Translations under genes and position numbers: made by a program | Notes under the pieces: model-generated | The model's input: only the letters and a program-made list of their open reading frames with translations | What the model was told of the DNA's origin: nothing | Database searches by the model: none | Origin: Gammaproteobacteria bacterium | Lineage (GTDB): Bacteria > Pseudomonadota > Gammaproteobacteria > Eutrophobiales > Eutrophobiaceae | DNA: 64,000 nucleotides | Direction: 5' to 3' | Assembly (NCBI GenBank): GCA_030835405.1 | Contig: JAURPG010000052.1 | Location: forward strand, 1,698-65,697 | Shown here: positions 43,131 through 64,000 of the stretch, piece by piece | Layout: each line of letters opens with the position of its first letter | How positions within the stretch are numbered: position 1 is the first letter of the stretch

Positions 43131-43149
43131 TAATAAAAGGAGACTAACT

Positions 43150-44550: not shown

Positions 44551-44572
44551 GCTTAATTTCATTTATCTGTAA

Positions 44573-47210: not shown

Positions 47211-47987
47211 TTAAGTTTTCCGAATCCGGTGATAGGCATTTCCTGAGCGACGTTGCCACCCATAATAGGGATGACGTTCAAGTAATTCGGGTTTACGAAA
47301 CAGAAATATCAGGACAATACCAGCTACAAAACCACCTACATGCGCCCAGAAGGCCACGCCACCACCGCTGGTGCCTATGGAACTAAATCCTCCGAGTAGT
47401 TGTACGAGAAACCAGTATCCCAGCATCCATACCGCCGGGACGGCGATAGTGGTGACAATAAAACCCAGGAATATCAGCATGTGTACGGTAACCCTTGGGT
47501 AAAGGAGGATATAGGCACCCATCACCCCACCGATGGCGCCGGAGGCACCTACCATGGGGACGATGGAAGATGGGCTACTGGCGATCTGTAACCCGGCAGC
47601 GGCGAGTCCACATAAAAGATAGAAGATAAAGAACCGAACATGCCCCATGGAATCTTCAACGTTATTACCAAAAATCCACAGGAACCACATATTACCGATG
47701 ATATGCATCCAGTTGCCATGCAAGAACATGTGGCTGAACACCGTGATCCAGGCCGGTTGCTCCGACACCACGCAGTACAGATCAGGCCCCACGGGTATGG
47801 CGTCTCCGGCGGGGGCCAGTTGTAATAATTCACCCGGTAAAAGACCCAACAAGCATATTGACCTAGCCATGGCCGGGTCTGCCCCCAGTCCCTGCACCAG
47901 TATCCAGGCCAGTACATTCAGACCCACAAGGGTCCAGGTGGCGTAAGGAGTCAGAAAATTCGGGTTGTCGTCACGAATGGGGAACAT
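47211..47987 (-). CDS. Rhomboid-family intramembrane serine protease
   Basis: HMFLHGNWMHIIGNMWFLWIFG and the GASGAIGGVMGAY (GxSG) motif are present, with a downstream AHVGG histidine. Confidence 0.85.
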   Translation of the reverse strand: MFPIRDDNPNFLTPYATWTLVGLNVLAWILVQGLGADPAMARSICLLGLLPGELLQLAPAGDAIPVGPDLYCVVSEQPAWITVFSHMFLHGNWMHIIGNMWFLWIFGNNVEDSMGHVRFFIFYLLCGLAAAGLQIASSPSSIVPMVGASGAIGGVMGAYILLYPRVTVHMLIFLGFIVTTIAVPAVWMLGYWFLVQLLGGFSSIGTSGGGVAFWAHVGGFVAGIVLIFLFRKPELLERHPYYGWQRRSGNAYHRIRKT

Positions 47988-48066
47988 GTATAGCGATTTT
48001 TATAAATTACCTGTTTTCGTTATCATTCACCAAATACCAGGCTGATGCAAACAGGTGAATAAAGCT

Positions 48067-48453
48067 ATGATATATCACGGTCAATGTCACTGTGGTGCCA
48101 TTCAATTCGAAGTGGAGGCACCGGAAAAACTGAAGTGCGTTCAATGTAACTGTTCCATTTGCACCAGGTCATGATACTTGCATCTTATTGTCCCCGGTTC
48201 TAAATTCAGGTTAACGTCAGGGGAAGATTCAATTTCTACCTATTCCTATGGTAGTGGCATTGCAAAACACCATTTCTGCAAGACCTGTGGAATCAAACCG
48301 TTTTATGTGCCCCGCTCAAATCCCGATGGGGTAGATGTGAACCTTAACTGCCTTGAGCCGCCGCCGGTAAATATTGAGATTGAACCCTTTGATGGTCAGA
48401 ACTGGGAGCAGCATGCCCATACCCTGACTCATCTGAGCAAGGAGGACATATGA
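48067..48453 (+). pseudogene. GFA (glutathione-dependent formaldehyde-activating / CENP-V-like) family gene interrupted by an in-frame TGA
   Basis: The ATG at 48067 gives MIYHGQCHCGAIQFEV...CNCSICTRS, then TGA at 48172-48174. The same frame continues YLHLIVPGSKF...HHFCKTCGIKPFY. The stop aligns with the conserved Gly of the neighbouring paralog (CDCTICKKRGAL). Confidence 0.65.
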
Positions 48454-48800
48454 AGCAAACCTATGCCGGTTCCTGCCATTGTGGATTTATCAAGTTTGAA
48501 GTAGACATGGATCTTGATCACGTTCGTGTTTGTGACTGTACTATCTGTAAAAAACGTGGCGCATTAAACCACCGTGTAGAGGAAGCCGATATCCGTATCT
48601 TCACTCCGTTGGAAAACATGATCCAATATAAGTGGCATACTCAAACAGCAACTGATTATATCTGTCCTACCTGCGGTATCCTGCCATTTCGCCATCCACG
48701 CGACAGGCCCGATATCTGGACAGTCAATGTCAGGTGTCTGGACAGAATTGATCTTGATACTATTCGTGTCAAAAAAATATATGGAAGTAAATTAGATTGA
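48450..48800 (+). CDS. GFA family zinc-binding protein
   Basis: Cysteine motifs CHCG...CDCTIC...CPTCG are present. The start ATG overlaps the previous stop (ATGA at 48450-48453). Confidence 0.75.
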   Translation: MKQTYAGSCHCGFIKFEVDMDLDHVRVCDCTICKKRGALNHRVEEADIRIFTPLENMIQYKWHTQTATDYICPTCGILPFRHPRDRPDIWTVNVRCLDRIDLDTIRVKKIYGSKLD

Positions 48801-48821
48801 GCATGTATTAATACCTGGAAG

Positions 48822-49316
48822 ATGATATATATGCGTAGAGTTTTTTATGATGCCCCTTGTCAGGACAACGATTATTTGTCCAGACATATTCAATTATTAA
48901 TCTTCAGTTATAAAAAAACTACAGGACAGGAAATGATCAACCCATCATTATCTGAAGAACAGGCTGCAGAGGAGGTTTTTTATTTTCCCTCAGTGGTTCT
49001 CTCCCATGATACCCAGTCAGATCCGGTATTAACCTACATCAACCAGACAGGACTTGAGTTGTTTGAACTGGACTGGGAGACGATTCTGACTATGCCTTCC
49101 CGGTTAACCGCTGAGCCCATGGAACGGGGAGAACGGCAAAGGTTATTGGATAAAGTCAGTAAAAATGGTTTTATAGATGATTACTCGGGGGTGAGGGTGT
49201 CCACTACTGGCAGGCGATTTAAGATTGAGAAGGTCACTGTCTGGAACTTGATGAATGAAGCTGGTGATTATCAAGGACAGGCGGCGATGTTTAGTCATTG
49301 GAGTTTTTTGGAATAG
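48822..49316 (+). CDS. MEKHLA domain protein
   Basis: The pattern VVLSHDTQSDPVLTYINQTGLELFELDWETILTMPSRLTAEP..RGERQRLLDKVSKNGFIDDYSGVRVSTTGRRFKIEKVTVWNL matches my recollection of bacterial MEKHLA (PAS-like) domains. Confidence 0.65.
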   Translation: MIYMRRVFYDAPCQDNDYLSRHIQLLIFSYKKTTGQEMINPSLSEEQAAEEVFYFPSVVLSHDTQSDPVLTYINQTGLELFELDWETILTMPSRLTAEPMERGERQRLLDKVSKNGFIDDYSGVRVSTTGRRFKIEKVTVWNLMNEAGDYQGQAAMFSHWSFLE

Positions 49317-49350
49317 TTGGAGCTGCTTTAAATTATATAAGCAGTATGAA

Positions 49351-49394
49351 TTCATCCTGTTCATCCTTAAGAATCCTGTAAATCTTGTCTATTA
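49351..49394 (+). repeat. Short intergenic repeat, family A copy 1 (degenerate tandem 9-mers AATCCTGTN)
   Basis: TTCATCCTGTTCATCCTTAAGAATCCTGTAAATCTTGTCTATTA. It is related to the copies at 52820-52848 (inverted) and 53964-54009. Confidence 0.6.
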
Positions 49395-49401
49395 CAATAT
49401 C

Positions 49402-49428
49402 GGATTCTGGCTTTCGCCAGAATGACGG
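49402..49428. repeat. REP-like palindromic element, family B copy 1
   Basis: GGATTCTGGC-TTTC-GCCAGAATGACGG. It shares the same GGATTC...GAATGACGG frame as 53862-53936. Confidence 0.55.
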
Positions 49429-49436: not shown

Positions 49437-50171
49437 TTATAGCTTCCAGTAACGGATAGTGGGCATTTCTTTGCCCGCCACTGCCAGGCAGGCCTTATAG
49501 TCCGGCCAGGTTTCAATGTTCAATAGTGACCAACGGGGCTGGCAGCCGTCCTCCCAGCGGTTGTCCAGCAATTCTGCCGGCTGGTCCGGATCCACAGAGA
49601 CATCAAACTTGTTCAGTCCATAAGCAATGCCTGTGCCGGTGGCCTTGACCAGTGCTTCCTTACGGGTCCAGGTAGAAAAAAAAGCCTCCAGTCTGGATGT
49701 TTCATCAAAACCCATGATCTGTTGATGTTCTAATTCAGAGAAAAATCGTTTGGAGAGCTTTTCATATTCAATATCTTTGCGGACCATCTCCACATCAATA
49801 CCAATAATGTTTTTTATGGAGACAGCAATGATTGCAAGGTCATGGGAATGGCTCACATTAAAGGTGATATCTGTATGTGACCAGTTCAAATCCAGTAATG
49901 GCATGCCGCTGGAGGTATAGGCAAACCCCAATTGCCTGGGGTCTTCGTTGAGTACATAACCGATGATGTTTCTAAGGGAACTTCGGGTGATCATAAATTC
50001 TCTGGATTTTTTCCCCGACAAGTAGCGGGAAGCACGGGTCTTTTCCTCTACCGATAGATATCTTTGGTGATTGAAGATGTCGTTTTCTTCTTCGGCAAGA
50101 TTGATCAACCAGATGTCTATAAAGTCTTCTGAAAACTCAAGTTCAGGACTAGTCTTTTCCCAGGTGGTCAT
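49437..50171 (-). CDS. Sfp-type 4'-phosphopantetheinyl transferase (PfaE-like)
   Basis: FNVSHSH, GIDVE and WTRKEALVKATG motifs are present. The start overlaps the oleD stop by 4 nt. Confidence 0.85.
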   Translation of the reverse strand: MTTWEKTSPELEFSEDFIDIWLINLAEEENDIFNHQRYLSVEEKTRASRYLSGKKSREFMITRSSLRNIIGYVLNEDPRQLGFAYTSSGMPLLDLNWSHTDITFNVSHSHDLAIIAVSIKNIIGIDVEMVRKDIEYEKLSKRFFSELEHQQIMGFDETSRLEAFFSTWTRKEALVKATGTGIAYGLNKFDVSVDPDQPAELLDNRWEDGCQPRWSLLNIETWPDYKACLAVAGKEMPTIRYWKL

Positions 50172-51160
50172 CTGGACTCCTTGTAAGCCTGGCTGAGTAG
50201 TTGCATGCCTTCATGGATACTGATTGTTGGTTTATATCCCAGGTCACGCCTGGTATTGTTCAGATTATACCAGTGGGCGCTGCTTAACTGCTTTGCAATA
50301 AAACGGGTCATCATGGGTTCGCTTTTAATGTTCAGTAATTTATAGATCCATTCTGATAAGGTCCCAATGGTATATAACATTGAGGCAGGCACAGTGCTGG
50401 TGATTTCCGGCATATCATGGGCCTTGAGAATGCCATTGATAATATCAGACATAACCCTGGGTTCACCATTGGTAATAAAGTAAGCCTTGCCAGCACAGGA
50501 TGATCCTATGGCCAGCATTTCATCTGCACAGAGGTGTGCCTGGGCAGCATTGTCAATATACGTAGTATCCACCAGGTTCTGTTTACCCGACACCAGTTTC
50601 AGTTTACCCTTCTTCGCCCTATCCAGTATGCGGCCCACCAGGTGCGGATCACCTGGGCCCCATATGAGATGAGGCCGGAGTGCCACGGTGGCAAGTTCGT
50701 TACTATTGGCGGCCAAAACCATCTGTTCGGCAGTGGACTTGGTACGTTGGTAATGGTTGAAATAGGTCTCGGGATAGGAGATGGATTCATCCACATTTTC
50801 TTCATCACTGCCATTGAAGACTACGCTGGGGGAACTGGTATACACCAGTTTTTTTATCCCGTTTGTCTTGCAGGCATTGATGACACATTCAGTCCCGGTG
50901 ACATTGATATGGTAATAATCCTGGTAGTTTCCCCATACCCCGGTGAGTCCTGCAACGTGATAGATTACATTGCAACCTTCACTGGCTTTGTTGACGGTGG
51001 ATTGATCGGTCATATCTCCCTGTATCGCTGTGATGCCAGGACGATCCAGTGCAGGATAAACCCCTCGTTGTAGAGATACTACCTCATTACCCCGTGCCAC
51101 CAGTGCCTTGACGATGGCGCCACCGAGAAAACCTCCACCGCCGGTGACCATTACCTTCAT
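50168..51160 (-). CDS. oleD: OleD: NAD(P)H-dependent 2-alkyl-3-ketoalkanoate reductase (3-beta-HSD/epimerase family)
   Basis: MKVMVTGGGGFLG, LVYTSSPSV, YQRTK, LATVALRPHLIWGPGD, VDTTYIDNAAQAH and AGKAYFITNGEP are collinear with my recollection of Xanthomonas OleD. Confidence 0.85.
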   Translation of the reverse strand: MKVMVTGGGGFLGGAIVKALVARGNEVVSLQRGVYPALDRPGITAIQGDMTDQSTVNKASEGCNVIYHVAGLTGVWGNYQDYYHINVTGTECVINACKTNGIKKLVYTSSPSVVFNGSDEENVDESISYPETYFNHYQRTKSTAEQMVLAANSNELATVALRPHLIWGPGDPHLVGRILDRAKKGKLKLVSGKQNLVDTTYIDNAAQAHLCADEMLAIGSSCAGKAYFITNGEPRVMSDIINGILKAHDMPEITSTVPASMLYTIGTLSEWIYKLLNIKSEPMMTRFIAKQLSSAHWYNLNNTRRDLGYKPTISIHEGMQLLSQAYKESR

Positions 51161-52806
51161 GGTATTCTTCTCTGTGCCCAGGCCGCAAGTTTATGTCGGT
51201 CGATCTTGGCATTGTGGCGGATATCTACCGGGAAAGAAGGGTGAAAAAAGAAATCTTTTATCACCTTGGTATGTTCAAATTCATTACCTATTTCCATCAG
51301 TTCCTTGATAAGTAGCTTTTTATTATCGCCATAATAATCATCTTCAAGTTCAACACAAATGGCAGGGACAGTCTCCCCATTTTTTTTAACCCCGATTAGG
51401 GCCGTGCGAAAGACCTTATGATGAACATTGAAAACCCCTTCACAACAGATGCTGTAATACACCTGTTTTTTATGAACAACACAATGTGCCTTACGACCGC
51501 AAAACCATAACCGGCCTTTATCATCCAGGTAACCGGTGTCCCCCATGCGATGCAGGATGTTTCCTTTATCATCATAGATCTTGGCGAGGCTAGTCTCCGT
51601 TGACCGATTGTAATAGCGACTTGTTACCTGTGGTCCCTGGACCACGATTTCACCCGGAACGAAAGGTTTTAATGTACTGGCCGGTTCCCAATTGGGGATG
51701 GCTTCGTTACTTAATGGGATGATGTGGACTGTGATACTACTCACTGGTTTGCCGACACAGATCCCTTTACCTGCATCGGTGTCCTTACGTGTTTCTGTCA
51801 ATATCTCACGGCTGCCGATAGAGGCCACTGGCAGGCATTCTGTTGCACCATATGGTGTAAAAACCTGGACATTTTCCGCTAATAATCTCTCATACCTGGC
51901 GAGGACCCTGGGTGAGACCGGTGCCCCGGCACTGAGGACGCGCTTTAATGTTGGCAGAGTAATATTATGTTTATCACCGTATCTTCCGGCCCGGTCAATC
52001 AGGGCAGGAGAGCCAAACATGGTAGTGGCCTGGTATTGATTGATGGCAGTGAAAAGTTTTTTTGGAGAAGCCTTGCCTGGCTGGGTGAAATTCATATCTG
52101 GAATGATAGATGTCATTCCCATGGCCGGTGCATACAGGGCAAACAAAGGGAAAGTGGCGAGATCCACTTCACCAGGGCTGATATTAAACTCACTTTTCAG
52201 TGCGTCCACCTGGGCCAGGAAATTTGCGTGGCTGTAAACCACACCTTTGGGAATTCCTGTACTGCCACTGGTAAACAAAATGGCTGCCATTTCTTTTTTG
52301 TCGGTGGTAATGGAAGCAGGGTCAAATGGTTGTCCTGCTGTGGCAATAACCGTGTTCAGTGATAATACATCAGAAAAATATTTTGCCAGGGGCGACACCA
52401 TGATACGAATAAAAATTGTTTGTTTTCCCCATTTGAATATCCGCCTGGCGATATCTGCTTTCAGTATGCCAATAAACGCCTGAGGCTCTGATTCTTCCAG
52501 GCATTTTTTCAATCCACGGATTCCCAGTCCTGGATCAATCGCAATCAATACTGCTCCGATTTTAAACAGGGCAAATACAATGCCGAAAAACTCCCAACCA
52601 GGCTGGACCATGAGGGCAACACGGGTACCTTTCTTGATTCCATTCTTGATTAATCCTGCCGCAATACGGTTGCTGTATTCCTCCAACTGCCTATAACTGT
52701 GTTCTGTGAATTTTCCCGATGGTTTTTGAATAGTGATGGCAAGATTATCTGGCTGAGCCTTTGCCATAATCGACAGGTGGGTTGCGATGTTGGTTATTTC
52801 CATCAT
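51157..52806 (-). CDS. oleC: OleC: AMP-dependent synthetase family beta-lactone synthetase
   Basis: NIATHLSIMAKAQPDNLAI, FALFKIGAVLIAIDPG, CLEESEPQAFIGI and the AMP motif ILFTSGSTGIPKGV are present. It overlaps oleD by 4 nt. Confidence 0.85.
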   Translation of the reverse strand: MMEITNIATHLSIMAKAQPDNLAITIQKPSGKFTEHSYRQLEEYSNRIAAGLIKNGIKKGTRVALMVQPGWEFFGIVFALFKIGAVLIAIDPGLGIRGLKKCLEESEPQAFIGILKADIARRIFKWGKQTIFIRIMVSPLAKYFSDVLSLNTVIATAGQPFDPASITTDKKEMAAILFTSGSTGIPKGVVYSHANFLAQVDALKSEFNISPGEVDLATFPLFALYAPAMGMTSIIPDMNFTQPGKASPKKLFTAINQYQATTMFGSPALIDRAGRYGDKHNITLPTLKRVLSAGAPVSPRVLARYERLLAENVQVFTPYGATECLPVASIGSREILTETRKDTDAGKGICVGKPVSSITVHIIPLSNEAIPNWEPASTLKPFVPGEIVVQGPQVTSRYYNRSTETSLAKIYDDKGNILHRMGDTGYLDDKGRLWFCGRKAHCVVHKKQVYYSICCEGVFNVHHKVFRTALIGVKKNGETVPAICVELEDDYYGDNKKLLIKELMEIGNEFEHTKVIKDFFFHPSFPVDIRHNAKIDRHKLAAWAQRRIP

Positions 52807-52819
52807 ACAAAAAATTTAA

Positions 52820-52848
52820 TAGACAGGATTCACAAGATTAACAGGAAT
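52820..52848 (-). repeat. Short intergenic repeat, family A copy 2 (inverted orientation)
   Basis: The reverse complement reads ATTCCTGTTAATCTTGTGAATCCTGTCTA. It lies in the oleB-oleC spacer. Confidence 0.55.
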
Positions 52849-52891
52849 TATATCTTATCTATCCTGTCCATTTTTATATTTTATAAAAAAA

Positions 52892-53776
52892 TTATACTGG
52901 GTTTGATGCCAGGAATTTTCTGGCCAGTGAAATAATTTCATCGGCCGCGTCTTCCAGTACGTAATGCCCGGCGTTTTTAAACCGATGGACTTCGGCATCC
53001 GGATAGAAGGACTGCCATTTTCGAAGAAATGTCTCATCAAAAACAAAATCCTTCATGCCCCAGCAAATAAGTTTGGGAATGGATTGCAACAGGGGTTCGT
53101 CATGATTGATTTTCGATATGTCATCATAGCCCCGGTCTTTGGGACTTAAGGGGATATCCTCAACAAACTTCCTGACCGCAAGGCGATTATGCCAGTTGTT
53201 ATAAGGTGCAAGATAGACCCTGGCCACTTCGGGTGTCATGGGCCTGGTGACACAGTGTTTTACTGCACCTTTACAAAAGGCGTTAAGGCCTTGGACGAGG
53301 ATTGAGTTAATGATCGGCGTATGGCCCAGGCGTATGGAAAATGGCAGGGCTTTATCTTCAGGCAGATGAAATGCTCCGGTATTTAAGACAATCAGGCGTT
53401 TTATCTTTTCAAGGTTCTGGCAGGCATACAGCATCCCTATCATGCCGCCCCAGTCATGGAGCACCAGTGTGATGTTCTCATTGATATCAAGCCGCATCAG
53501 AAGGTCGCTCAAGTCTTTGACCCGTTGTGAAAAATGGAAGTCATAATTATCTTTGAGTGGTTTATCCGACAGGCCCATACCGATATGGTCCGGCACAATA
53601 CATCGATAGTCGTCCTTCAATCCGGTGACCAGCCTGCGGTAATAAAACGACCAGCTGGGGTTGCCATGTAACATGACAACAGGTTCAGCCTGTTTGTCGC
53701 CTTCGTCCAGATAATGGAGCTTGTGTCCATTAACCTCCAGGAAGTGAGAGTTGAAAGGATAGTCAGGAAAATTCAT
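52892..53776 (-). CDS. oleB: OleB: alpha/beta hydrolase (haloalkane-dehalogenase-like) beta-lactone decarboxylase
   Basis: HKLHYLDEG....PVVMLHGNPSWSFYYRRLV, YRCIVPDHIGMGLSDKP and LVLHDWGG are present. Confidence 0.85.
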   Translation of the reverse strand: MNFPDYPFNSHFLEVNGHKLHYLDEGDKQAEPVVMLHGNPSWSFYYRRLVTGLKDDYRCIVPDHIGMGLSDKPLKDNYDFHFSQRVKDLSDLLMRLDINENITLVLHDWGGMIGMLYACQNLEKIKRLIVLNTGAFHLPEDKALPFSIRLGHTPIINSILVQGLNAFCKGAVKHCVTRPMTPEVARVYLAPYNNWHNRLAVRKFVEDIPLSPKDRGYDDISKINHDEPLLQSIPKLICWGMKDFVFDETFLRKWQSFYPDAEVHRFKNAGHYVLEDAADEIISLARKFLASNPV

Positions 53777-53861
53777 TAATTAATCTATCTAAATGACAAC
53801 AGTTAAACATAATTTTAAAGCTAATTTAAGATTAATTTATTTCGATAAGCTTTAAAAAACA

Positions 53862-53936
53862 GGATTCCCGTCTCGGCTTTGGCTCCTGCGTCGCTCTACC
53901 GCCTACATCCATGTAGGCATTCGCGGGAATGACGGG
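53862..53936. repeat. REP-like nested palindromic element, family B copy 2
   Basis: Outer arms are GGATTCCCG...CGCGGGAATGACGGGG. The inner perfect palindrome is GCCTACAT-CC-ATGTAGGC (53901-53918). Confidence 0.55.
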
Positions 53937-53963
53937 GAAGTAGACTGAGGCATAACCTTATTG

Positions 53964-54009
53964 ATTCATCCTGAAAATCTTTTTTAAATCCTGTTAATCC
54001 TGTCTAGAT
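53964..54009 (+). repeat. Short intergenic repeat, family A copy 3
   Basis: GATTCATCCTGAAAATCTTTTTTAAATCCTGTTAATCCTGTCTAGA. It contains the perfect tandem AATCCTGTT-AATCCTGTC. Confidence 0.6.
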
Positions 54010-54050
54010 TTTTTCTAACTAGAATCGTGACCGCGCGGGAGTGATGGGTG

Positions 54051-55250
54051 TTACCACTCCCAACCTAGCATCATGCAGTTCAGCCCACTACCGATCCCCA
54101 GGAAACCTACCCGGTCGCCGGGTTTGAGAAATTTGCGTTGTTCTGCGATCGCTGCGGTCATGGGCAGGGAGACTGTACCTATATTGCCCAGGTGTTTATA
54201 GGTGTTGAAATCTTTGTCCTCGGATATCCCCAGTTCTCTTAGAATGGTATCGCGATGACCTTCCCCCACCTGATGACATATAATCTTGTCCACTTCATCC
54301 CGGGCCCAGCCCATTTTACCAAGAAAGGAACCCCAGGTTTTTACGCCAAGTTTAACCCCATGCTTTAATACAGCCACGGAATCCGTTGCCATGAATTCGG
54401 ACAGGACCTCGGGTAACATCTTTGATGGCAACATATTTGCCACTGCCGGTGGCAGTTTCTGGCTGGTCATGAGATCACGCATCACGGAAGGAATGGTTTC
54501 TGGTTTCATGACTTCGTCAATAGTGGCCATGAGCTTGTCCGGGGTAAACATTAGTTTACCAATTTCTACCGGGGTCATGGTGACGCCCCATCGGCATAAA
54601 TTATGATGTTCGGGAGCCGCCTGGGTTGTACCGCCGATTAAACGGTGTGTATGGTCATTATCAAATGAACCATCCGTAATGAGAACCGCTGCAGCCCCGG
54701 ATCCACCGGTAAGGGTGGCAAGTGAGGAGGTGAATATGTCCATGGAGCGTTCCTTGAGAATACGATCAATCATGATCTCAACGATCTCTCGCGATGATTC
54801 ACATGACACCACCATGCCGGCACGGATCTGTTTCAACTCGATGCGGTTGGCAATATCGATAATACCATTCAGTATTCCCAGACAGGCATTGGACAAGTCA
54901 TAGACATAGGCATTGGGACTGATTCCCAGTTTATCGGCAACGGCACAGGCGGTGGCAGGTTCGTAGTTTTCCCGGCACACCCCTGCATAGATCAGGGTTT
55001 CAATATCTGAGGCATTTACATTAGATTGATTCAAGGCCTTCACTGCCGCCGCCGCTGCGCCTTCCGACAGGCTATAACCTGGGTCCCACCAGCGTCGTTC
55101 AGCAATACCGGTTAATGACTCCAGTTGCCCGGGTGAGATATGCAGGTCCCGATAGACGGGTTGCAGCCTTTCTTCCAGTTCATCGGAAGTCACTACCGTG
55201 GGTGGTAGTTCATAACCGATGGACTCCATATATACGCGTTGATAATTCAT
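54051..55250 (-). CDS. oleA: OleA-like thiolase (KAS III superfamily) with a roughly 64-aa internal insertion
   Basis: Active-site context is DLSNACLG (Cys122), ICHQVGEGH (His) and LGNIGTVSLP (Asn). The C-terminus GDRVGFLGIGSGLNCMMLGWEW and the N-terminus SDELEERLQPVY are collinear with my recollection of Xanthomonas OleA. The start lies 5 nt after the pfaC-like stop. Confidence 0.75.
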   Translation of the reverse strand: MNYQRVYMESIGYELPPTVVTSDELEERLQPVYRDLHISPGQLESLTGIAERRWWDPGYSLSEGAAAAAVKALNQSNVNASDIETLIYAGVCRENYEPATACAVADKLGISPNAYVYDLSNACLGILNGIIDIANRIELKQIRAGMVVSCESSREIVEIMIDRILKERSMDIFTSSLATLTGGSGAAAVLITDGSFDNDHTHRLIGGTTQAAPEHHNLCRWGVTMTPVEIGKLMFTPDKLMATIDEVMKPETIPSVMRDLMTSQKLPPAVANMLPSKMLPEVLSEFMATDSVAVLKHGVKLGVKTWGSFLGKMGWARDEVDKIICHQVGEGHRDTILRELGISEDKDFNTYKHLGNIGTVSLPMTAAIAEQRKFLKPGDRVGFLGIGSGLNCMMLGWEW

Positions 55251-55255
55251 TATGC

Positions 55256-58200
55256 TTATATTCTAAGGGTAAAATCCTTCATCTGATAGATGGTCCTGCC
55301 ATCAACTGACAAAAAACCGTCCGCGGTGACCATTTTTCTTTGATTATCAACGTGTTTGATGACTGCTTCAACGGTAACTGTATCATCAACGGGGATGATT
55401 TGGCCCCGGTAAAGCCATTCGTGGGGCTGGTTTTTTGCCATGGATTCAAATTCCACCTGATTATCTCCCCATTTTTCAATGGCGAAAACCTTGAGTAGCT
55501 GAATAAAGGACTCCAGTCCCAAGGATCCGGGCCAGACCGGGTCCTGGTAAAAATGGGCCTTAAAGAACCAGGCATCAGGTTTTACTTTTGCTGTTCCCTT
55601 GATAAACCCCAGGCCCACAGGTCCACCTTCTGGATCATAATGGGTTATGGTATCCACCATGCGCATCTGTTCAGCAGGATAAGAGCCTGAATCAGGATAA
55701 CTGAATTTACTTGCCCTGGTTATTTCTTCATCTGTTGGCTGGTATAACTCTGCTTCCCTTATCCCTACCTGATTGGAAAGAGCCTGCTTTGAAAAGAAAC
55801 CAAAATAGGTATCACCCTTATACACCGTTCCTTTAATACATTTGACCTCATAATCGAAGTTCTGAATGATCATGCCGCCGGAGGTCGAGACCTGGGTAAT
55901 GGTGACATGTGTTGTCAATGTTCCGGTATCGGGAGTGACAAGTAGAAATTGCTCTGCCTTACCACCGAGGTTGCGAAACGACAGGTCCACATCACTGGTC
56001 AGCGCCGATCCCAGATATGCCGCGAGCCAGCCACATGGTTGCAGGGCCACCTCCAGTAATACTGAAAATGGCATGGAACCCTGACGGTTTTCCTGGAAGT
56101 ACCAGGCATCAGTCGGTACATCATATTCAGCAATGATTCTGCCACCGGGTTTTAATACCCATTGTTCACAATCTTTAATGGAGATGATCCTGTCCAGGAA
56201 TTGATAAGGTGGTCCAGGGAGTCGGGCGATGATTCTGTCCTTATCGAATGGTTTGTACCGCTCTCCAAAGGCATCAGAAGGCTTGCCGGTGGCAAAGGCA
56301 AAGATAGAGTCATAGTCAAACAGGACCGGATTCGTTTTGTTGGGTTGTTTCTCTTCAGACCAGATTTCAAGCAGACGCTCGCGTGTAAGCCCACTCAGTC
56401 GGGTAGACATATTACTCATCTGTACAATAGGTCGGTTGTCTGCATACATGAGGGCATCGGCGATAACATAAGGCGTTCCATCGCTCTGGTAACCGATCTC
56501 TTTAATAATGATCTCATACTGGACTTTTTTCGTAGTGGCGATCACCTGACCACGACATTTCAGTTTACTGGTCACACCAGGTATGGGTTCATATATAAAT
56601 TCATCCGCTTCCCCCACCCATCCAAGGCGCATGAGATAAATACGCAGGGTATGCAAACAACATTCATACATCAGCGTTCCAGGCATTACCATGTCATCCA
56701 CGAAATGACAGGTCAAAAACCAGTCATCGGGATGGATGTCTGCCTCCCCGGTGATGGTACCCATCCCAAACCGGCCACCGCCTGGTTCTATGTCCAGTAC
56801 GCGATGTACCAGTGTCATCCGTCCGGAAGGGAGTTTGACAGGCGTGTTGATTGGCAAACCCTTGAATGTTTCACCAAAGGCCGAGATCAGATCTCCATGA
56901 CGCAAGGCGTTGAGCTGCGAATCATCCAGAGGGCTGGTGCCCATGGGGACCAGTTCAATCCAGTCATCGGATTTCTTCCCTGCCTGTGGTTGTAACTCCA
57001 GGGCAGTCTGGACAATACCTTTGCCGGCATCCAGTTCAGATTGGGTGAAAAATCCCGCACAACCATTGCGCATGGTCAACAGGGGCTTATCATCCACCGT
57101 GCCATCAAAACTAAACCTGAACAGATGGGTATCGCCCTGCTTAAAGAAATGGTCTATACGAATGTCATAATGAATAGTTTTTCCCGGTACAGGTAATGGT
57201 CCATGAAAGGTAATCTCCGCATCCAGTAGTCGATATACAGCCAGCCCCTTTGTGATCTTATCGATTCCCATGTATCCGGACAAAAACAGGTCGGCCTGCC
57301 CTGATTCCACGGCAATACAGGTGGGGATGCGATTGCCGTCCAGGTACCAGGCACCGGGGTGAATATCATGTTCAGTGACTACCCTGCCTGAGGTCATGGA
57401 ACCGGGTTCACCTTCAACTTCCAGGATACGGTCTACTAACATTAAAGGTTCATCAGGTAATCTTACCCGGGTAGGGAAATCATCAATACCGTTAAACTGT
57501 TCACCAAGTACCTTTGCTATGGAGCCGGTAGCAAATTCCAGACATTGTTGGCGGTCCATGAATAAGTCTTTAGATGTGGGCCAGTTTTTTGGGGCACTGT
57601 GTAAGTTATCGCTAACATGAATATCCATGCCCCCGGTGTCCAGGAGTTTCATCTGTAATGACAATGCCTGGCTCAGAGACTGGTTGATGCCGTTTGAGAT
57701 TCTCAGGAAGGTCTCATGGGTCAGTGCCCTGGCTGATTCTGTTTTCAACATCTGTTCAACGACTTCTGAATCTGAAAAAGAGGACATTGGTACGGCGGGA
57801 TGTGGAATGATATCTGCAGAGACCCTTTTCTCTTCGGGTTTATCCTGCACTCTGGGTTTGAATGGAATTTCTATGTTCAAAGGACCATGCCCGGTTTTTA
57901 CCATGATGACCTTATCTGGCAGGGAATCATGTTGTTGTGCCGGGAAGTCTTGATACAAGGATGATAAATCAAGGTCAACGCCATGTGATTTTAGAATGGC
58001 GAGTGTTTGCAATACTGACAGTATTCCGTTCTTGCCCTTGACACAAACCGCATGGCTGACATGAGGTTTGGTGCCCAGGATACTATCAATCATACGGGTA
58101 CATGATGCACCGGGTCCCATCTCAATAAATAGCCTGACATTATCTTCATATGCCGCGTTGATGACCTGGTTAAAATCAAATGGTTTGATGGCCATGTCGA

Positions 58201-61200
58201 CAATGGAATCAGCGGCAGAATCAGTAGTAACGTTATACTCTCCACCTTTTATACAGCTATAAAAACTTACGTTTTCCGGCGGGTTTGTTGGAAACAGATG
58301 AAGTTCCCGGTAGGCATCATATACCGGCGTGGCCACTTCGCAGTGAACCGTGGTGATAGCTTCCACAGTATGAAATACACACCTGAGCTCTTTAACTAGC
58401 GACTCCACTGCTATCCTGTGACCACCTATGACACATTCATCTGGTGTGTTGGTGATCAACCGATAAATCCAGGGTAAGCTGGAAATATATTCCTCCACTA
58501 TGTTTGCCGGACAGTTAACGACTCCAACTAACCAGTCCACATCTACATAACCAGACAGTCCCCAGGTTTTTCTGACCGCATCACACTTGCCGGCCAGATC
58601 GGACTTGAATAAGGATGATTTTTCCATCCGTTCCAGCATCAGATCACGATCAGTCCAGGTCCGTGTGGCAAACAGGCCCGCAGTTTCCCCCAGGCTGTAA
58701 CCGATAATGGCATCAGGTTTAACCTGAAAACTGGTAATGACATCGCTGATAAATGTCCCAAGCCAGACCTGGGCAAAGATAGCCTGCTCATGAGTTAATG
58801 GGCTATTGTCTCCCTGTTGCCAGAATTTTGATGATGCAAATTGTGATCGCAGGCGTGTGTTTTCATTTTCAAGGTCTTTAATCACATTAGGCCAACGGCA
58901 CGCAATGTCCTGCCCCATACCAGTGAAATGGTTGCCGGAACCGGGAAATACAAAGGCGAGCTTTTGATCTTTTGAAAGCGGTTTGTCCGTATAAAATATT
59001 TTTTCTTCAATTACCGATTGGCTCGATTCTATTAGAGACCTTGCCCTGAAAAGATGTTGTTTCAGTTCAGCTGGATTAATCGAAATAACATTCAGTGATA
59101 GTTTTGCTTTGCTCTTGTCAGATTTACTGAACCATTTAGCAGCAATTTCCTGAATATTATCCGAACCGGCTGAATCCACGAAGCTGTTCAGACGATTGAT
59201 GCCTTGGAGAATACCTTGCTTATCGTTAGCATCGATACTGAACAATGCATCATGGCTTTGCAGGTGTAAGAAATTTCCGGCTACTGCAGGTTCTCTCAAG
59301 ACTTCTTCCCTAGCCTTGCCCAGTATGACGTGAGAGCAATTACCACCGATGCTCATAGATGACACTAGGATATGATCGTGATTATCATGTTTATCGGATA
59401 GCACCAGTTGTGGTGATTCTGTCCAGCAAATATGGTGATTGTCAGTTTGCAATATCGGTTGTTTATGTCGATGTTTGTAAGGTGGAAGAACATTATGTTG
59501 CAGGCTTAATGCCGCCCTGGCAACGGAAGCTAGTCCTGAGGCGGCACCTGTTTGCCCAATTTCATTCATTACGGAACCAATAAGTACTCTACCTGTGTAA
59601 TTATTATTGAGGAGGGTATTGAGTGCCTGGAATTCAATGTCATCATCTTCCGGATTACCATTGCCATGAAGTTCAATAAATGAAATTTCATCTATTGAAA
59701 CATTGGCATCGCGGCAGGCATCGTTAATGCAGTCTTGGTAGGTTTCCATGGCTGTAGTGAATGCCTGGTTATCACCACCAGTTTTGCTGGAGAGACCATT
59801 AATTACAGCATAAACCTGATCACCGTCTTTAACGGCGTCAGCGTAGCGTTTTAATATAAATGCCACGGCACCCTCACCGATGGGGGTGGAATAGGGTTTA
59901 ATCTTGTTTTGACCATATACCGATCTCACATCACCGCATAAATCAACAGCACCGGCAATGGCCATATTTAATTCGCCTTTTTGTAGTGACCGCACAGCAA
60001 GCTCCAGGGCATTCATTCCTGATGCCTCTTCGCTGGATACTGTAAAACTGGGACCACCAATATTAAATGCCCGGGCAATACGGCTGGCAACGATCCCGCC
60101 CAGGGCGCCCATGGTACGATTTGCCGATAATGGCGGGCTGACCTGGTCTTTGAGCTTTTCCGTCCAGTTATAAAGTGTATTTTGATCAACAACCCAATTG
60201 GATGCGGCTGCCCAGGAGTTCAACTTATCTGTGATTGACCAACGTAAATGAAAGTTTGTGGTGTTTAGATCCAGGCCGATACCGATGAAAATACCTACGT
60301 CATCACGGTGTTCATCTGAAATTTTATCAAGACCGGCATTATCCAGCGCATTTGCTGCCACATTCAGCATGAGTAATTGCTGTGGCAGCATATCTTCCAG
60401 TTCTTTTGGGGGGATCCTGTATCGTCCCAATGGGATATCAATCTGGTTAATTAAAAAACCCGGTATGGATTCCAGTTTTTGGTTTCCCCATCGGTTATTT
60501 GCCGTAACGGGCTGAGTCTGGTGATCAACGCCAAATACTCGCTGCAGGTATTTGTCTTTACTGTCCCAGGGACCAAAATGGGTTTCCATACCAATAATGG
60601 CAATACTGTCCTGTTGAATTTGTGATTTGATATCTTTTTGCCTGGAATTGCTGACAATAGCGGACAAATCGGGATCATATTCTTCCAGTAGGACATGGGC
60701 ATTGATGCCGCCAAATCCAAATGCACTGACCGCAGCCTTTCTTGTTACACCCTCTTTCCGGGGACTCCATTCATCAGGCCGGCTCAATACCCTGAATGGT
60801 CCTGTTTCCAGGCTGATGCCATCTGCTTGTGACTCAAAGTTTGCCATGGGAGGAAGCTGTTTATTTTTTAAGGCCATCAGGGTTTTAATCAGGCCCGCAG
60901 ATCCAGCCGCTGTGAGCAGATGGCCGACATTACTTTTTACCGATCCGATAACACATTTTTGTTTTGCGCTTTGCCGACCTTCCCATAATGTCAGCATGCT
61001 ATTAAATTCGGTCCTGTCACCCGTTGGTGTACCTGTACCATGACATTCAATGAGGTCGATCTCTTCAGGGGACCAACCTGCCTCACGGTAGGCGGCACGC
61101 ATTGCACGAAGCTGACCTTCCGAATCGGGAAGCATCAGATTGCCCTTGATATCATTGGAAAGCCCAATGCCTGCGACCGTAGCATATATATGATCTTTAT

Positions 61201-62014
61201 CGCGTAAGGCATCTTCCAGACGTTTGATAACCAGGATACCGGAACCTTCTCCCACCACCAGTCCATCGGCCTTGTAATCAAATGGGGAACACCTGCCGCT
61301 GGAGGAGATTGCCCCCAGGGTGGAAAACCCCATCTGTGTGTAGAGGCTGTCTGGCCTGGATAGTCCACCACATAACATGGCATCCATTCTGCCTGACTGA
61401 AGTTCATCAATGGCATACTTGAGTGAATAAAGTGATGAAGCACAGGCAGCATCCAGCGTGTAGCTGGGGCCTTTCAGTCCCAGGGACCTTGCCAGGATCA
61501 TTCCCGGCAGGCCAGCAATATACCGGTTAAGTGGATGGGTTTCAGGGACAGTGCATGCCGCTAAACCAGACGGCTTTGTAGATGTAATTATCTGGTCCAG
61601 TACCTCTTCCGCCAGGCGGGATGAGTAATCTGTCGGCAGCGCAATGTTGCCGATGATAATACCGGTGCGTTTTCTGTTGAGATTGCCAGTTTGACAGTCT
61701 TTCCAGGCCTGACTGCCTGCATGTAACAATACCCTGAACATGGGGTCCAGGGCTTCAATCAATTGTTTTTCTATGGCCAGGCCATCCAGGTCCAGTTCAA
61801 AGTCATCTATGAAACAGGCCTTTTTCGAATTGACCCGGTCAGGTTTTGGAGAACTAGCATAGACATCCTCTATGTTTACTGACCACCTTTTTTCCGGTGG
61901 TTCCCGGGAACAGTCCTTGCCGGCAATGATGTTTTCCCAGAACTGTTCCGGGTTCATTGCCGATGGAAAGGCGTTTCCGATCCCGACGATGGCAATAGCA
62001 GGCCTGGTTTGCAT
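55256..62014 (-). CDS. pfaC: PfaC-like PUFA-synthase subunit: KS - CLF - AT - FabA-type DH didomain x2
   Basis: 2252-aa ORF. The domain motifs are listed in the separate domain features below. Confidence 0.85.
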   Translation of the reverse strand: MQTRPAIAIVGIGNAFPSAMNPEQFWENIIAGKDCSREPPEKRWSVNIEDVYASSPKPDRVNSKKACFIDDFELDLDGLAIEKQLIEALDPMFRVLLHAGSQAWKDCQTGNLNRKRTGIIIGNIALPTDYSSRLAEEVLDQIITSTKPSGLAACTVPETHPLNRYIAGLPGMILARSLGLKGPSYTLDAACASSLYSLKYAIDELQSGRMDAMLCGGLSRPDSLYTQMGFSTLGAISSSGRCSPFDYKADGLVVGEGSGILVIKRLEDALRDKDHIYATVAGIGLSNDIKGNLMLPDSEGQLRAMRAAYREAGWSPEEIDLIECHGTGTPTGDRTEFNSMLTLWEGRQSAKQKCVIGSVKSNVGHLLTAAGSAGLIKTLMALKNKQLPPMANFESQADGISLETGPFRVLSRPDEWSPRKEGVTRKAAVSAFGFGGINAHVLLEEYDPDLSAIVSNSRQKDIKSQIQQDSIAIIGMETHFGPWDSKDKYLQRVFGVDHQTQPVTANNRWGNQKLESIPGFLINQIDIPLGRYRIPPKELEDMLPQQLLMLNVAANALDNAGLDKISDEHRDDVGIFIGIGLDLNTTNFHLRWSITDKLNSWAAASNWVVDQNTLYNWTEKLKDQVSPPLSANRTMGALGGIVASRIARAFNIGGPSFTVSSEEASGMNALELAVRSLQKGELNMAIAGAVDLCGDVRSVYGQNKIKPYSTPIGEGAVAFILKRYADAVKDGDQVYAVINGLSSKTGGDNQAFTTAMETYQDCINDACRDANVSIDEISFIELHGNGNPEDDDIEFQALNTLLNNNYTGRVLIGSVMNEIGQTGAASGLASVARAALSLQHNVLPPYKHRHKQPILQTDNHHICWTESPQLVLSDKHDNHDHILVSSMSIGGNCSHVILGKAREEVLREPAVAGNFLHLQSHDALFSIDANDKQGILQGINRLNSFVDSAGSDNIQEIAAKWFSKSDKSKAKLSLNVISINPAELKQHLFRARSLIESSQSVIEEKIFYTDKPLSKDQKLAFVFPGSGNHFTGMGQDIACRWPNVIKDLENENTRLRSQFASSKFWQQGDNSPLTHEQAIFAQVWLGTFISDVITSFQVKPDAIIGYSLGETAGLFATRTWTDRDLMLERMEKSSLFKSDLAGKCDAVRKTWGLSGYVDVDWLVGVVNCPANIVEEYISSLPWIYRLITNTPDECVIGGHRIAVESLVKELRCVFHTVEAITTVHCEVATPVYDAYRELHLFPTNPPENVSFYSCIKGGEYNVTTDSAADSIVDMAIKPFDFNQVINAAYEDNVRLFIEMGPGASCTRMIDSILGTKPHVSHAVCVKGKNGILSVLQTLAILKSHGVDLDLSSLYQDFPAQQHDSLPDKVIMVKTGHGPLNIEIPFKPRVQDKPEEKRVSADIIPHPAVPMSSFSDSEVVEQMLKTESARALTHETFLRISNGINQSLSQALSLQMKLLDTGGMDIHVSDNLHSAPKNWPTSKDLFMDRQQCLEFATGSIAKVLGEQFNGIDDFPTRVRLPDEPLMLVDRILEVEGEPGSMTSGRVVTEHDIHPGAWYLDGNRIPTCIAVESGQADLFLSGYMGIDKITKGLAVYRLLDAEITFHGPLPVPGKTIHYDIRIDHFFKQGDTHLFRFSFDGTVDDKPLLTMRNGCAGFFTQSELDAGKGIVQTALELQPQAGKKSDDWIELVPMGTSPLDDSQLNALRHGDLISAFGETFKGLPINTPVKLPSGRMTLVHRVLDIEPGGGRFGMGTITGEADIHPDDWFLTCHFVDDMVMPGTLMYECCLHTLRIYLMRLGWVGEADEFIYEPIPGVTSKLKCRGQVIATTKKVQYEIIIKEIGYQSDGTPYVIADALMYADNRPIVQMSNMSTRLSGLTRERLLEIWSEEKQPNKTNPVLFDYDSIFAFATGKPSDAFGERYKPFDKDRIIARLPGPPYQFLDRIISIKDCEQWVLKPGGRIIAEYDVPTDAWYFQENRQGSMPFSVLLEVALQPCGWLAAYLGSALTSDVDLSFRNLGGKAEQFLLVTPDTGTLTTHVTITQVSTSGGMIIQNFDYEVKCIKGTVYKGDTYFGFFSKQALSNQVGIREAELYQPTDEEITRASKFSYPDSGSYPAEQMRMVDTITHYDPEGGPVGLGFIKGTAKVKPDAWFFKAHFYQDPVWPGSLGLESFIQLLKVFAIEKWGDNQVEFESMAKNQPHEWLYRGQIIPVDDTVTVEAVIKHVDNQRKMVTADGFLSVDGRTIYQMKDFTLRI
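55259..56242 (-). other. FabA-type dehydratase didomain 2 (aa 1925-2252)
   Basis: YDVPTDAWYFQEN marks the pseudo-half. KPDAWFFKAHFYQDPVWPGSLGLE marks the catalytic half (His2154). Confidence 0.7.
56405..57472 (-). other. FabA-type dehydratase didomain 1 (aa 1515-1870)
   Basis: EHDIHPGAWYLDG marks the pseudo-half. ADIHPDDWFLTCHFVDDMVMPGTLMYE marks the catalytic FabA-like half (His1770). Confidence 0.7.
58055..58963 (-). other. Acyltransferase domain (aa 1018-1320)
   Basis: FVFPGSGNHFTGMG and the GYSLGE nucleophile elbow are present (Ser1107, nt 58694-58696). Confidence 0.75.
59315..60607 (-). other. Chain-length-factor (KS-like, Cys-less) domain (aa 470-900)
   Basis: TVSSEEASG aligns with TLDAACASS with Glu at the Cys position. 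ELHGNGNPEDD and the GQTGAASG remnants are retained. Confidence 0.7.
60680..62002 (-). other. Ketosynthase domain (PfaC-like aa 5-445)
   Basis: TLDAACASS with Cys191 (nt 61442-61444), ECHGTGTPTGD and KSNVGHLLTAAG. Confidence 0.8.
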
Positions 62015-62045
62015 GAGCTTCCTGATTTTAAAAAGTTAAAAATTT

Positions 62046-64000
62046 TTAAGACTGGGTTTCGTCTATTAGTCTGTTATTTTTAAATGCTGAATTTAATGAA
62101 TCATCAACGACACATTCGTATTCATCAATCCGGGCAATCAATTCACCTTTGTTATCAACCAGTTCTATGGTTGCCACAATTGCATGTTTATTGTGAGAAA
62201 CAATCTCTATACGTATTTCCATTTCTGTCGTTGGATACGTACGGTTAAACTGGCGATAACCAGTTAAGCCGGTTGGCAGTGAACCAGACCCTGAGTCTTC
62301 AAAACTCCAGAGTATCATCAGTTGAAATGCGCTATCGATTATCAACGGGTCGGCCAACCAGTTTTTACGAATCGGCTGGGTCATCCATAAGGATGGTTTT
62401 GGTGCTGTTTTGGCCGTGCCTGTTATCCGGGAGTCAGAATAACCGATAATCGAAGTAATACTCTGTAGCTCCGGCCCATGAAATAACAGGCCTTTATCGT
62501 AAATATCGCCCAAGGACCTGGAATATTTTCCATGCTCTACAGATACCTGTGGTAGTGGTTTTTGTGGATAAGTATTATCAAGGATGATGGTTGCGCCGGC
62601 ATGTAAGGTTTCTCCTTGTTTTAATTCAACCGGGACAATAAGTTGACCATTTTCTTCGACTAGGTCCCCCGCCAGAATCTGAACGTTTAACATGTCATCA
62701 GAGTCTACAATAATACCTTTGAATATCCTGAGATTATCCACACCACTAAATACCAGCCCCGGGTTATTATGCAGGGCACCATGGGCAAACCACTCAATGA
62801 TGATTGCCGCAGGTAACACAGCCTTGCCATTCATAATATGAGAATTGAGAACGGGCAATTCTTTAATGCTGACAGTCCGTTCGTAGGCGAGATGTAATGG
62901 ATTACTGTCGGTTTTGGATTGTATGGTTTTACTAATAATTTTATTAACCTGCTCAGGCGGTTTTGAACCCAGTATAATCACTTCTACATCAGATTCAGAT
63001 TTGAGTTCATCGATTAGTTGCCTCGCACCTGCCTGCAGAGGGATGACACCAATGCCCTCAGCTTCAAACAGTTTGCGTAATTGAGGGGTGACCATACCAC
63101 CATCCCATGGCCCCCAGTTCAAGCTAATAACTTTACACTGCTTGCGATAAATAGATTCAATTTGTGCCATCTTGTTTAAGACTTCATTGGCTGCAGCATA
63201 ATCGCTTTGACCCTTACGGCCGAATCGTGCCGTGGTGGATGAAAAAGTCACCAGGACTTTCAAGTTATCGTCGATTGTTGCCTTAAGCAGTGATTTAAGA
63301 CCATAGACCTTGGTGGAATAAACATCATTAAACTGGTCACTGGTTTTATCTTCAAACAATTTATCGGCGAGCACACCTGCACCGTGTATAACACCGGTAA
63401 TGGGGCCAAATTCCTTACGTGCCTCATCGATTGCCAGTGAGACCTGATCTACGTTTCGGATATCAACTGGTTTATATAATACTTTGACCCCGCATGCGCG
63501 GGCCCGCTCCAGATTGTGTCTGACTTCCCGTGCCGCCATTATCTCCCTGGCCTTTGCCTCCACCTCTTTGGGAGACATGGATTGTTGATTGTTTTGAATA
63601 ATGGCTTGTTTTATATCAACTGCATTGTCGGTGTCAGGTAACCAGTCCGGCTCTAATTCAGGGACAGGGGAGCGTCCCAGTAATAACAGATTGTTCTCAA
63701 ATTCACAGGCAAGCTCAATTCCAATTTCAGCTGTGATGCCGCGGGCACCACCACTGATGACAATGGTCTCGCCCTTGCCTGGCAGGGTTTTCGCAGATTG
63801 TGATTCTTTTGTTACGGATTTTTCATTAAGGTTGAGCAGGGAAACGTTGTTATCCTGAACTCCAGCTTCTATATGCCCAGTATAGAATAATTCTTCCACT
63901 ATTTTTTCTACTGTCTCATTTGCGATATCAGTACTTGTTTGAATATCCAGTAGTCGGCAGCTGACCCCTGGCCATTCTTTATCCAGGGTTTTTATTAAAC
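62046..64000 (-). CDS. pfaA: PfaA-like PUFA-synthase subunit, C-terminal KR + PKS-type DH; 5' part outside the window
   Basis: The frame of the listed 617-aa ORF stays open upstream of its GTG (63899) to the window edge (...LIKTLDKEWPGVSCRLLDIQTSTDIANETVEKIVEELFYTGH). So this is the tail of a larger protein. Confidence 0.8.
   Translation of the reverse strand, partial: LIKTLDKEWPGVSCRLLDIQTSTDIANETVEKIVEELFYTGHIEAGVQDNNVSLLNLNEKSVTKESQSAKTLPGKGETIVISGGARGITAEIGIELACEFENNLLLLGRSPVPELEPDWLPDTDNAVDIKQAIIQNNQQSMSPKEVEAKAREIMAAREVRHNLERARACGVKVLYKPVDIRNVDQVSLAIDEARKEFGPITGVIHGAGVLADKLFEDKTSDQFNDVYSTKVYGLKSLLKATIDDNLKVLVTFSSTTARFGRKGQSDYAAANEVLNKMAQIESIYRKQCKVISLNWGPWDGGMVTPQLRKLFEAEGIGVIPLQAGARQLIDELKSESDVEVIILGSKPPEQVNKIISKTIQSKTDSNPLHLAYERTVSIKELPVLNSHIMNGKAVLPAAIIIEWFAHGALHNNPGLVFSGVDNLRIFKGIIVDSDDMLNVQILAGDLVEENGQLIVPVELKQGETLHAGATIILDNTYPQKPLPQVSVEHGKYSRSLGDIYDKGLLFHGPELQSITSIIGYSDSRITGTAKTAPKPSLWMTQPIRKNWLADPLIIDSAFQLMILWSFEDSGSGSLPTGLTGYRQFNRTYPTTEMEIRIEIVSHNKHAIVATIELVDNKGELIARIDEYECVVDDSLNSAFKNNRLIDETQS
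62049..62897 (-). other. PKS-type (hot-dog) dehydratase domain
   Basis: HIMNGKAVLP is an HxxxGxxxxP motif. A downstream DSAFQ-type region follows (PLIIDSAFQLM). Confidence 0.7.
62970..63782 (-). other. Ketoreductase domain
   Basis: TIVISGGARGITAE is the Rossmann motif. IHGAGVLAD and SSTTARFGRKGQSDYAAANE (catalytic Tyr) are present. Confidence 0.75.

Follow-up and report, generated by a model that had tools for sequence, protein, structure and literature searches.

A predicted Type I pfa–ole polyolefin operon in an uncultured aquatic gammaproteobacterium of the order UBA4486

The closest described counterpart of the locus reported here is the tandem gene cluster pfaD-A-B-C-oleA-B-C-D-pfaE of Geobacter bemidjiensis Bem (Yoshida et al., 2016; PMC4882568), in which the genes of a polyunsaturated fatty acid (PUFA)-type synthase (pfa) are followed by those of head-to-head hydrocarbon synthesis (ole), and whose host makes the polyolefin C31:9 (PMC4882568; PMC3098273). 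Clusters that carry a pfaBC fusion were defined as Type I in Geobacter, Desulfuromonas, Pelobacter, and Gemmata, and were linked to ole genes (Shulse and Allen, 2011; PMC3098273). The pfaEABCD and oleABCD genes of Shewanella and Photobacterium encode the same enzymology, leading to the polyunsaturated hydrocarbon (PUHC) C31:9, and their OleA depends on the products of Pfa; however, PfaB and PfaC are separate proteins there, the pfa and ole genes form separate and often unlinked operons, between which or close to which lies a thioesterase gene (pfaT), and eicosapentaenoic acid (EPA) or docosahexaenoic acid (DHA) is made as well. In Photobacterium profundum SS9 both operons lie next to each other, and genetic evidence, including that from an OleA C123A mutant, has been presented for OleA drawing acyl groups directly from the acyl carrier protein (ACP) domains of Pfa (Allemann et al., 2019; PMC6463001). 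Moreover, co-expression of oleA with pfaABCDE in Escherichia coli is enough for formation of a 31:8 ketone, OleA appearing to act on the Pfa acyl-ACPs (PMC6463001). The OleABCD system of Xanthomonas campestris, with no associated pfa genes, uses acyl-CoA or chains from the fatty acid synthase of type II (FAS II) and yields saturated and monounsaturated olefins. Here, we describe a pfa–ole cluster in a 64,000-nucleotide stretch (hereafter, the window) of contig JAURPG010000052.1 from an uncultured gammaproteobacterium (assembly GCA_030835405.1), whose closest relative is the metagenome-assembled genome (MAG) of Candidatus (Ca.) Eutrophobius brisbanensis, in the GTDB order UBA4486.

The cluster consists of seven open reading frames (ORFs), which are all on the minus strand, co-directional, and tightly packed from position 64000 down to 49437 of the window (Table 1). 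The intergenic gaps are 31 nt (pfaA–pfaBC), 5 nt (pfaBC–oleA), 274 nt (oleA–oleB), and 85 nt (oleB–oleC), and 4-nt overlaps join oleC to oleD and oleD to the gene of a 4'-phosphopantetheinyl transferase (PPTase). An initial annotation of this DNA had given the same gene list, minus-strand layout, gaps, and overlaps, including that between oleD and the PPTase gene, and the ORF coordinates match it exactly; likewise, the Pfam and NCBIfam profile searches by which domains were labeled here agree with every one of its gene labels. We estimate at about 80% the probability that this is an intact Type I pfa–ole operon, with the gene order of the G. bemidjiensis cluster, making polyolefin in an uncultured aquatic gammaproteobacterium of UBA4486 (Ca. 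Eutrophobiales). By the published description of the Geobacter cluster, both loci have the order pfaA, pfaBC fusion, oleA, oleB, oleC, oleD, and PPTase gene on one strand; pfaD lies within the G. bemidjiensis cluster, whereas its expected position here is beyond the window. The hosts also differ, G. bemidjiensis being an obligately anaerobic metal reducer and the present host an uncultured aquatic bacterium with a genome of ~2–2.7 Mb. A single gene train also distinguishes the present locus from those of Shewanella and Photobacterium, and a PfaT-like hotdog thioesterase was not found in the 10 kb downstream of the cluster.

By its sequence, the 399-aa thiolase encoded next to pfaBC is OleA and not FabH, in keeping with the assignment made in the initial annotation. 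It scores well above the cut-off of the OleA-type profile NF006720 (475.5 bits vs 285) and far below that of the FabH profile TIGR00747 (83 bits vs 292), and X. campestris OleA accounts for all of its top matches among solved structures in the PDB (183 bits), with FabH-type enzymes reaching at most 67 bits. In the alignment to X. campestris OleA (PDB entry ID, 3ROW), Glu97, Cys123, His326, and Asn356 correspond to E117, C143, H285, and N315, respectively, and these four residues are invariant in 46 clade members; Cys123 also coincides with the catalytic Cys123 of the Shewanella/Photobacterium enzymes. The identification is supported by the passed NF006720 profile, the best structural match, and the retention of all four catalytic residues. 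Close homologues carry the JGI name 'acyl-CoA:acyl-CoA alkyltransferase', and the neighbors of oleA in the window include oleB, oleC, and oleD, whose chemistry is shared with the X. campestris system.

The 2252-aa protein encoded upstream of oleA matches, in its predicted domains, the Type I pfaBC fusion as defined by Shulse and Allen (2011), in that a KS-CLF didomain, a fused AT, and two FabA-type DH regions are all present. Its second KS-like domain is assigned as CLF because Glu663 replaces the catalytic Cys, and a FabA-type His motif is found at residue 2154. No record of this exact protein was retrieved in the database search. The upstream frame aligns with positions 1917–2581 of the PfaA model TIGR02813 at 366.5 bits, and contains the motifs YAAAN and HIMNGKAVLP. 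In the close relatives L150 and L153, the PfaA orthologue is encoded as one protein, of 2269 and 2270 aa, respectively, with the architecture KS-AT-ACP-KR-DH; therefore, ~1620 aa of PfaA are expected outside the window. The architecture past position 64000 is taken from the product lengths and domains of these two loci and, at a greater evolutionary distance, from L029, in which a gene for a PfaD-type enoyl reductase (ER) lies directly upstream of pfaA. At least three tandem ACP repeats precede the KR domain in the PfaA orthologue of locus L001 (Ca. Eutrophobius). Homologues of the PfaA tail with 42–47% identity belong to Desulfuromonadales, Geobacter, Isosphaeraceae, and Gemmataceae, the groups that host Type I clusters; the matches of this search are fragments only, of at most 1130 aa. 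As a separate observation, PfaA of L029 is split inside the ACP region into proteins of 1242 and 899 aa.

The remaining enzymes of the cluster would complete an Ole pathway. OleB has its best matches with dehalogenase models and structures, no OleB-named model being among its NCBIfam matches, and contains an HDWGG motif (Asp108) together with a C-terminal GHY motif. This enzyme bears directly on the nature of the end product, which could be conceived as a stable beta-lactone or ketone lipid in place of a hydrocarbon, given that oleACD clusters without oleB yield beta-lactones through OleA, OleD, and OleC (PMC7064751) and that clusters with oleA alone yield ketones (PMC6463001). Such an outcome is very unlikely in the present case: OleB is intact, with the Asp of the dehalogenase-type HDWGG motif and the C-terminal His, and every related locus of sufficient length keeps its gene beside oleA and oleC. 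The beta-lactone lipid that the initial annotation had offered as an alternative product is accordingly disfavored by the presence of intact OleB. The best profile matches of OleC and OleD, well ahead of the rest, are Shewanella-type models, those for olefin beta-lactone synthetase and 2-alkyl-3-oxoalkanoate reductase, respectively. OleC scores 659.5 bits with NF045785 (OlefBLtnSynShew; equivalog cut-off, 850) and 623.7 bits with NF045786 (cut-off, 900), and passes the broader NF006754 (700 bits; cut-off, 478); no solved OleC structure was found in the structure search. OleD scores 441.4 and 426.5 bits with NF042423 and NF042422, respectively, both below the cut-off of 580, and its next-best family, HpnA, reaches 146 bits, about one-third of the scores of the top OleD models. 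The PPTase is of the two-domain Sfp/HetI type with the motifs GIDVE and WTRKEALVKATG; its best match is HetI (173.6 bits, below the cut-off of 370), and in 17 related loci its gene likewise closes the cluster on the 3' side.

Domain content, catalytic residues, and the conserved synteny and coupling can be observed in the sequences themselves. By analogy with the characterized families, from which substrate, hand-off, product, and co-transcription are all read, a plausible route can be drawn for the operon. The Sfp-type PPTase, equivalent to PfaE, would load phosphopantetheine on the tandem ACPs of PfaA, and PfaA (KS-AT-ACPn-KR-DH), PfaBC (KS-CLF-AT-DH2), and the PfaD enoyl reductase expected upstream would then build a polyunsaturated medium-chain acyl-ACP (16:4n-3 in Shewanella). 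OleA, which would be translated right after PfaBC, may accept a pair of these acyl chains, probably handed over directly by the ACPs, and condense them head-to-head to a 2-alkyl-3-keto acid, using Cys123, His326, Asn356, and Glu97. This product would be reduced by OleD and closed into a beta-lactone by OleC at the expense of ATP, and OleB would finally decarboxylate the beta-lactone to a cis-olefin. The predicted product is most plausibly C31:9, the compound detected in G. bemidjiensis. The dedicated pathway to a very-long-chain polyolefin proposed in the initial annotation is supported as a prediction.

To examine the conservation of the locus, 27 independent loci obtained from a genome-collection scan with OleA were compared. 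The complete order pfaBC-oleA-oleB-oleC-oleD-PPTase is present in 17 of the 27 (16 gamma-type loci and one from a Limisphaerales (Verrucomicrobiota) MAG), and most of the others are interrupted by contig ends, so that the arrangement is not a product of chance. The gamma-type loci belong mainly to the order UBA4486, a few bearing other MAG labels. Most of the order is also shared by the Planctomycetota-labeled loci, and no PPTase match was found in the locus of the cultured planctomycete Paludisphaera soli. Of 23 gamma-type loci, 21 have a gap of –4 to +9 nt between pfaBC and oleA, while the gap between oleA and oleB ranges from 37 to 3205 nt in all 22 measurable ones; the Planctomycetota and Verrucomicrobiota loci show the reverse pattern. 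In nearly all of the related loci, OleC and OleD overlap by 4 or 1 nt. These comparisons bear out a further point raised in the initial annotation, the linkage of oleA with the megasynthase and not with oleBCD, as a conserved feature of this clade.

The same comparisons bear on the question of whether the two pathways are mere neighbors, with the Pfa-like synthase supplying free or phospholipid PUFA (EPA, DHA) and OleABCD forming less unsaturated olefins from FAS II chains, as in Xanthomonas. The Pfa synthase of Shewanella also makes EPA (PMC6463001), a stand-alone product of the pfa homologues has been considered possible by Shulse and Allen (PMC3098273), and the solved structure closest to the present OleA is that of X. 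campestris. Nevertheless, we regard this arrangement of independent pathways as quite unlikely, since pfaBC and oleA overlap or are at most 9 nt apart in nearly all gamma-type loci, the whole order is conserved across loci labeled as three phyla, G. bemidjiensis makes C31:9 with the same cluster, and OleA of PUHC producers condenses the Pfa-derived chain only (Allemann et al., PMC6463001).

Type I clusters are patchy in distribution and thought to have spread by horizontal gene transfer (Shulse and Allen, 2011), and in some relatives the cluster is interrupted (by a transposase gene in L029, by epimerase genes in L028, and by a 6-kb insert in L012), as might be seen if the present cluster were a decaying or silent horizontally acquired remnant without product. 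The state of the genes, however, makes such decay scarcely probable, because all of the ORFs are intact and the catalytic residues are kept. Compared with L001, the identity is 96% for OleA, 85% for OleD, 84% for OleB and OleC, 83% for the PPTase, 82% for PfaBC, and 73% for the PfaA tail, which points to purifying selection. In addition, the GC content of the cluster (0.44–0.49) is similar to that of the remaining window, and the downstream flank of L153 is collinear with the window. In nearly every other locus, too, OleA is the most conserved protein or tied for the most conserved.

OleA of the present clade differs from nearly all other members of its family examined by an insertion of 53 residues (~227–279, encoded at ~54414–54572), rich in Met and Pro and located in the loop joining the two thiolase halves. 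Its length is constant across all of the 399-aa gamma-type orthologues examined, and at several of its positions variation is absent or nearly absent. X. campestris OleA, which has only 2 residues at this position, lacks the insertion, as do the orthologues of Planctomycetota and Verrucomicrobiota and almost all of the best 150 OleA-family representatives, whose matches fall in two segments on either side of it; one representative, P0242, carries an unrelated insertion in the same loop. An AlphaFold model of OleA, with a shallow alignment of 46 sequences, was too poor to place the insertion (mean predicted local distance difference test score, 51; predicted template modeling score, 0.39). In UBA4486-type Gammaproteobacteria, where oleA is coupled to pfaBC in 21 of the 23 loci and the insertion is conserved, the pathway has possibly gone a step past adjacency. 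It is conceivable, though improbable, that the insertion serves as a docking or membrane-association element holding OleA on the Pfa megasynthase, by which OleA would become the obligatory off-loading module in an assembly line devoted to hydrocarbons, whose chain length or product might differ from C31:9.

The 274-nt spacer between oleA and oleB, described in the initial annotation as repeat-filled, does contain short direct and inverted repeats as well as short ACAGGATT repeats, but shows little conservation even in the nearest relatives, and its degree of structure is not unusual, its folding energy being ordinary (z = –1.05). A hairpin resembling repetitive extragenic palindromic (REP) elements (~53852–53934; CGTCATTCCCGCGAA ... 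CGGGAAT) is broken up by an insert of 48 nt, and a T-run follows it. Two copies of the hairpin motif CGTCATTCYSGCGAA are present in the window, both of them within the cluster, and the operon of L001 has the hairpin at three intergenic sites (11277–11290, 12385–12398, and 15986–15999); in L001, too, a matching hairpin lies just past the PPTase stop codon. In the form CGTCATTCTGGCGAA-NN-CCAGAATCC, the hairpin has sense-strand orientation and occupies intergenic gaps within the ole part, where ACAGGATT repeats accompany it. The motif is, however, abundant in metagenomic contigs without pfa or ole genes: it was found in at least 120 metagenomic stretches with GC contents of 35–68%, and none of those listed encodes pfa or ole genes. 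It is therefore regarded as a generic REP-like palindrome, possibly forming a 3' hairpin in RNA, and not as a dedicated regulatory device. A regulatory RNA or cluster-specific cis-element in the spacer was also considered and is rejected in view of the z value, the lack of an Rfam match in the spacer at the gathering threshold or at E ≤ 1, and the occurrence of the hairpin in unrelated contigs. In scans with promoter and terminator consensus sequences, the counts were not above those in shuffled sequence, and nothing was called in the intergenic gaps.

Table 1. Positions of the genes, domains, and intergenic elements of the pfa–ole cluster in the window
Feature	Position	Strand	Description or evidence
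PfaA-like subunit tail, 650 codons	62046–64000	–	KR + PS-DH; stop-free frame open to the window edge
PfaA tail, KR	about 63102–63767	–	127.7 bits
PfaA tail, PS-DH	about 62112–62897	–	54.5 bits
PfaBC fusion, 2252 aa	55256–62014	–	KS-CLF-AT-DH-DH
PfaBC, KS	60671–61999	–	Residues 6–448; Cys191 (DAACASS)
PfaBC, CLF	59471–60610	–	Second KS-like domain; Glu663 at the catalytic-Cys position
PfaBC, AT	58076–58954	–	Residues 1021–1313; Ser1107, GYSLG
PfaBC, DH1	about 56387–57571	–	FabA-type double-hotdog DH region
PfaBC, DH2	about 55259–56344	–	FabA-type double-hotdog DH region
OleA, predicted head-to-head Claisen-condensing thiolase, 399 aa	54051–55250	–	Profile, structure match, catalytic residues
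oleA–oleB spacer, 274 nt	53777–54050	–	Short repeats and REP-like hairpin
OleB, haloalkane-dehalogenase-like alpha/beta hydrolase, predicted beta-lactone decarboxylase, 294 aa	52892–53776	–	Profiles, motifs
OleC, predicted AMP-dependent beta-lactone synthetase, 549 aa	51157–52806	–	NCBIfam profiles
OleD, predicted 2-alkyl-3-oxoalkanoate reductase, 3-beta-HSD/SDR type, 330 aa	50168–51160	–	NCBIfam profiles
Sfp-type 4'-phosphopantetheinyl transferase, PfaE equivalent, 244 aa	49437–50171	–	AASDHPPT_N + ACPS domains
REP-like hairpin CGTCATTCTGGCGAAAGCCAGAATCC	49402–49427	–	10 nt past the PPTase stop codon, followed by ACAGGAT repeats

Several side observations concern the relatives and the flanks of the cluster. 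Two sugar-epimerase genes are located between pfaA and pfaBC in L028 (3021–5293), a Y1 transposase gene and small ORFs between pfaBC and oleA in L029 (20049–22261), and the 6-kb insert of L012 between oleB and oleC (~12140–18275); L005 and L009 have inserts of 1.5 and 3.2 kb, respectively, between oleA and oleB. A gene for a MEKHLA-domain (PAS-like) protein (48822–49316, plus strand) is convergent with the PPTase gene, and is also found beside the cluster in L019/L153, L021, and L027. In Ca. Eutrophobius brisbanensis (L150, 16000–21200), genes for amidohydrolase, beta-elimination lyase, DUF3047, and Cys/Met-PLP proteins form a block ~2–5 kb downstream of the PPTase gene; the same amidohydrolase-to-Cys/Met-PLP block (30748–35424) is ~14 kb from the PPTase gene in the window, indicating an insertion or deletion between these close relatives. 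Among the products of the intervening genes of the window (~35400–49400) are a TonB receptor, an MBL hydrolase, CNNM, LysR, a PQQ dehydrogenase, and a rhomboid protease, and the GC content is lower (0.39–0.43) at 36–44 kb. Elsewhere in the window, two minus-strand ORFs of 755 aa (6544–8811) and 605 aa (20096–21913) have no Pfam match at E ≤ 0.001.

Some points weigh against the assignment as an intact polyolefin operon. The N-terminal ~1620 aa of PfaA, together with any pfaD ER gene, fall beyond the edge of the window. OleC, OleD, and the PPTase have diverged from the characterized enzymes of Shewanella and Xanthomonas, as judged by their scores below the strict NCBIfam equivalog cut-offs. The 53-aa insertion of the predicted OleA might bear on its specificity, and the spacer hairpin with its T-run could act as a partial transcription terminator between oleA and oleB.

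The merging of pfa and ole genes, which the initial annotation had held to be potentially novel, has a precedent; the claim of novelty fails because the identical tandem order was already described in a characterized strain, G. bemidjiensis (PMC4882568), and the idea of an ACP-to-OleA hand-off has been published too. With both the pfa–ole linkage and this hand-off on record, the locus raises no new mechanistic question. What is new is the host lineage and the clade-specific insertion in OleA; the tight coupling of pfaBC and oleA and the variable oleA–oleB spacer with its generic hairpin are likewise specific to this clade. Neither 'olefin' nor 'polyunsaturated' occurs in a paper on the UBA4486 lineage (PMC11758582). 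The present locus extends the Geobacter-type pfa–ole hydrocarbon operon to this abundant, uncultured, small-genome planktonic lineage. If the operon is expressed, UBA4486 bacteria would supply polyunsaturated C31-type hydrocarbons to estuarine and fresh waters; this would be modestly interesting for lipid-biomarker studies and for understanding the role of such hydrocarbons in aerobic plankton.

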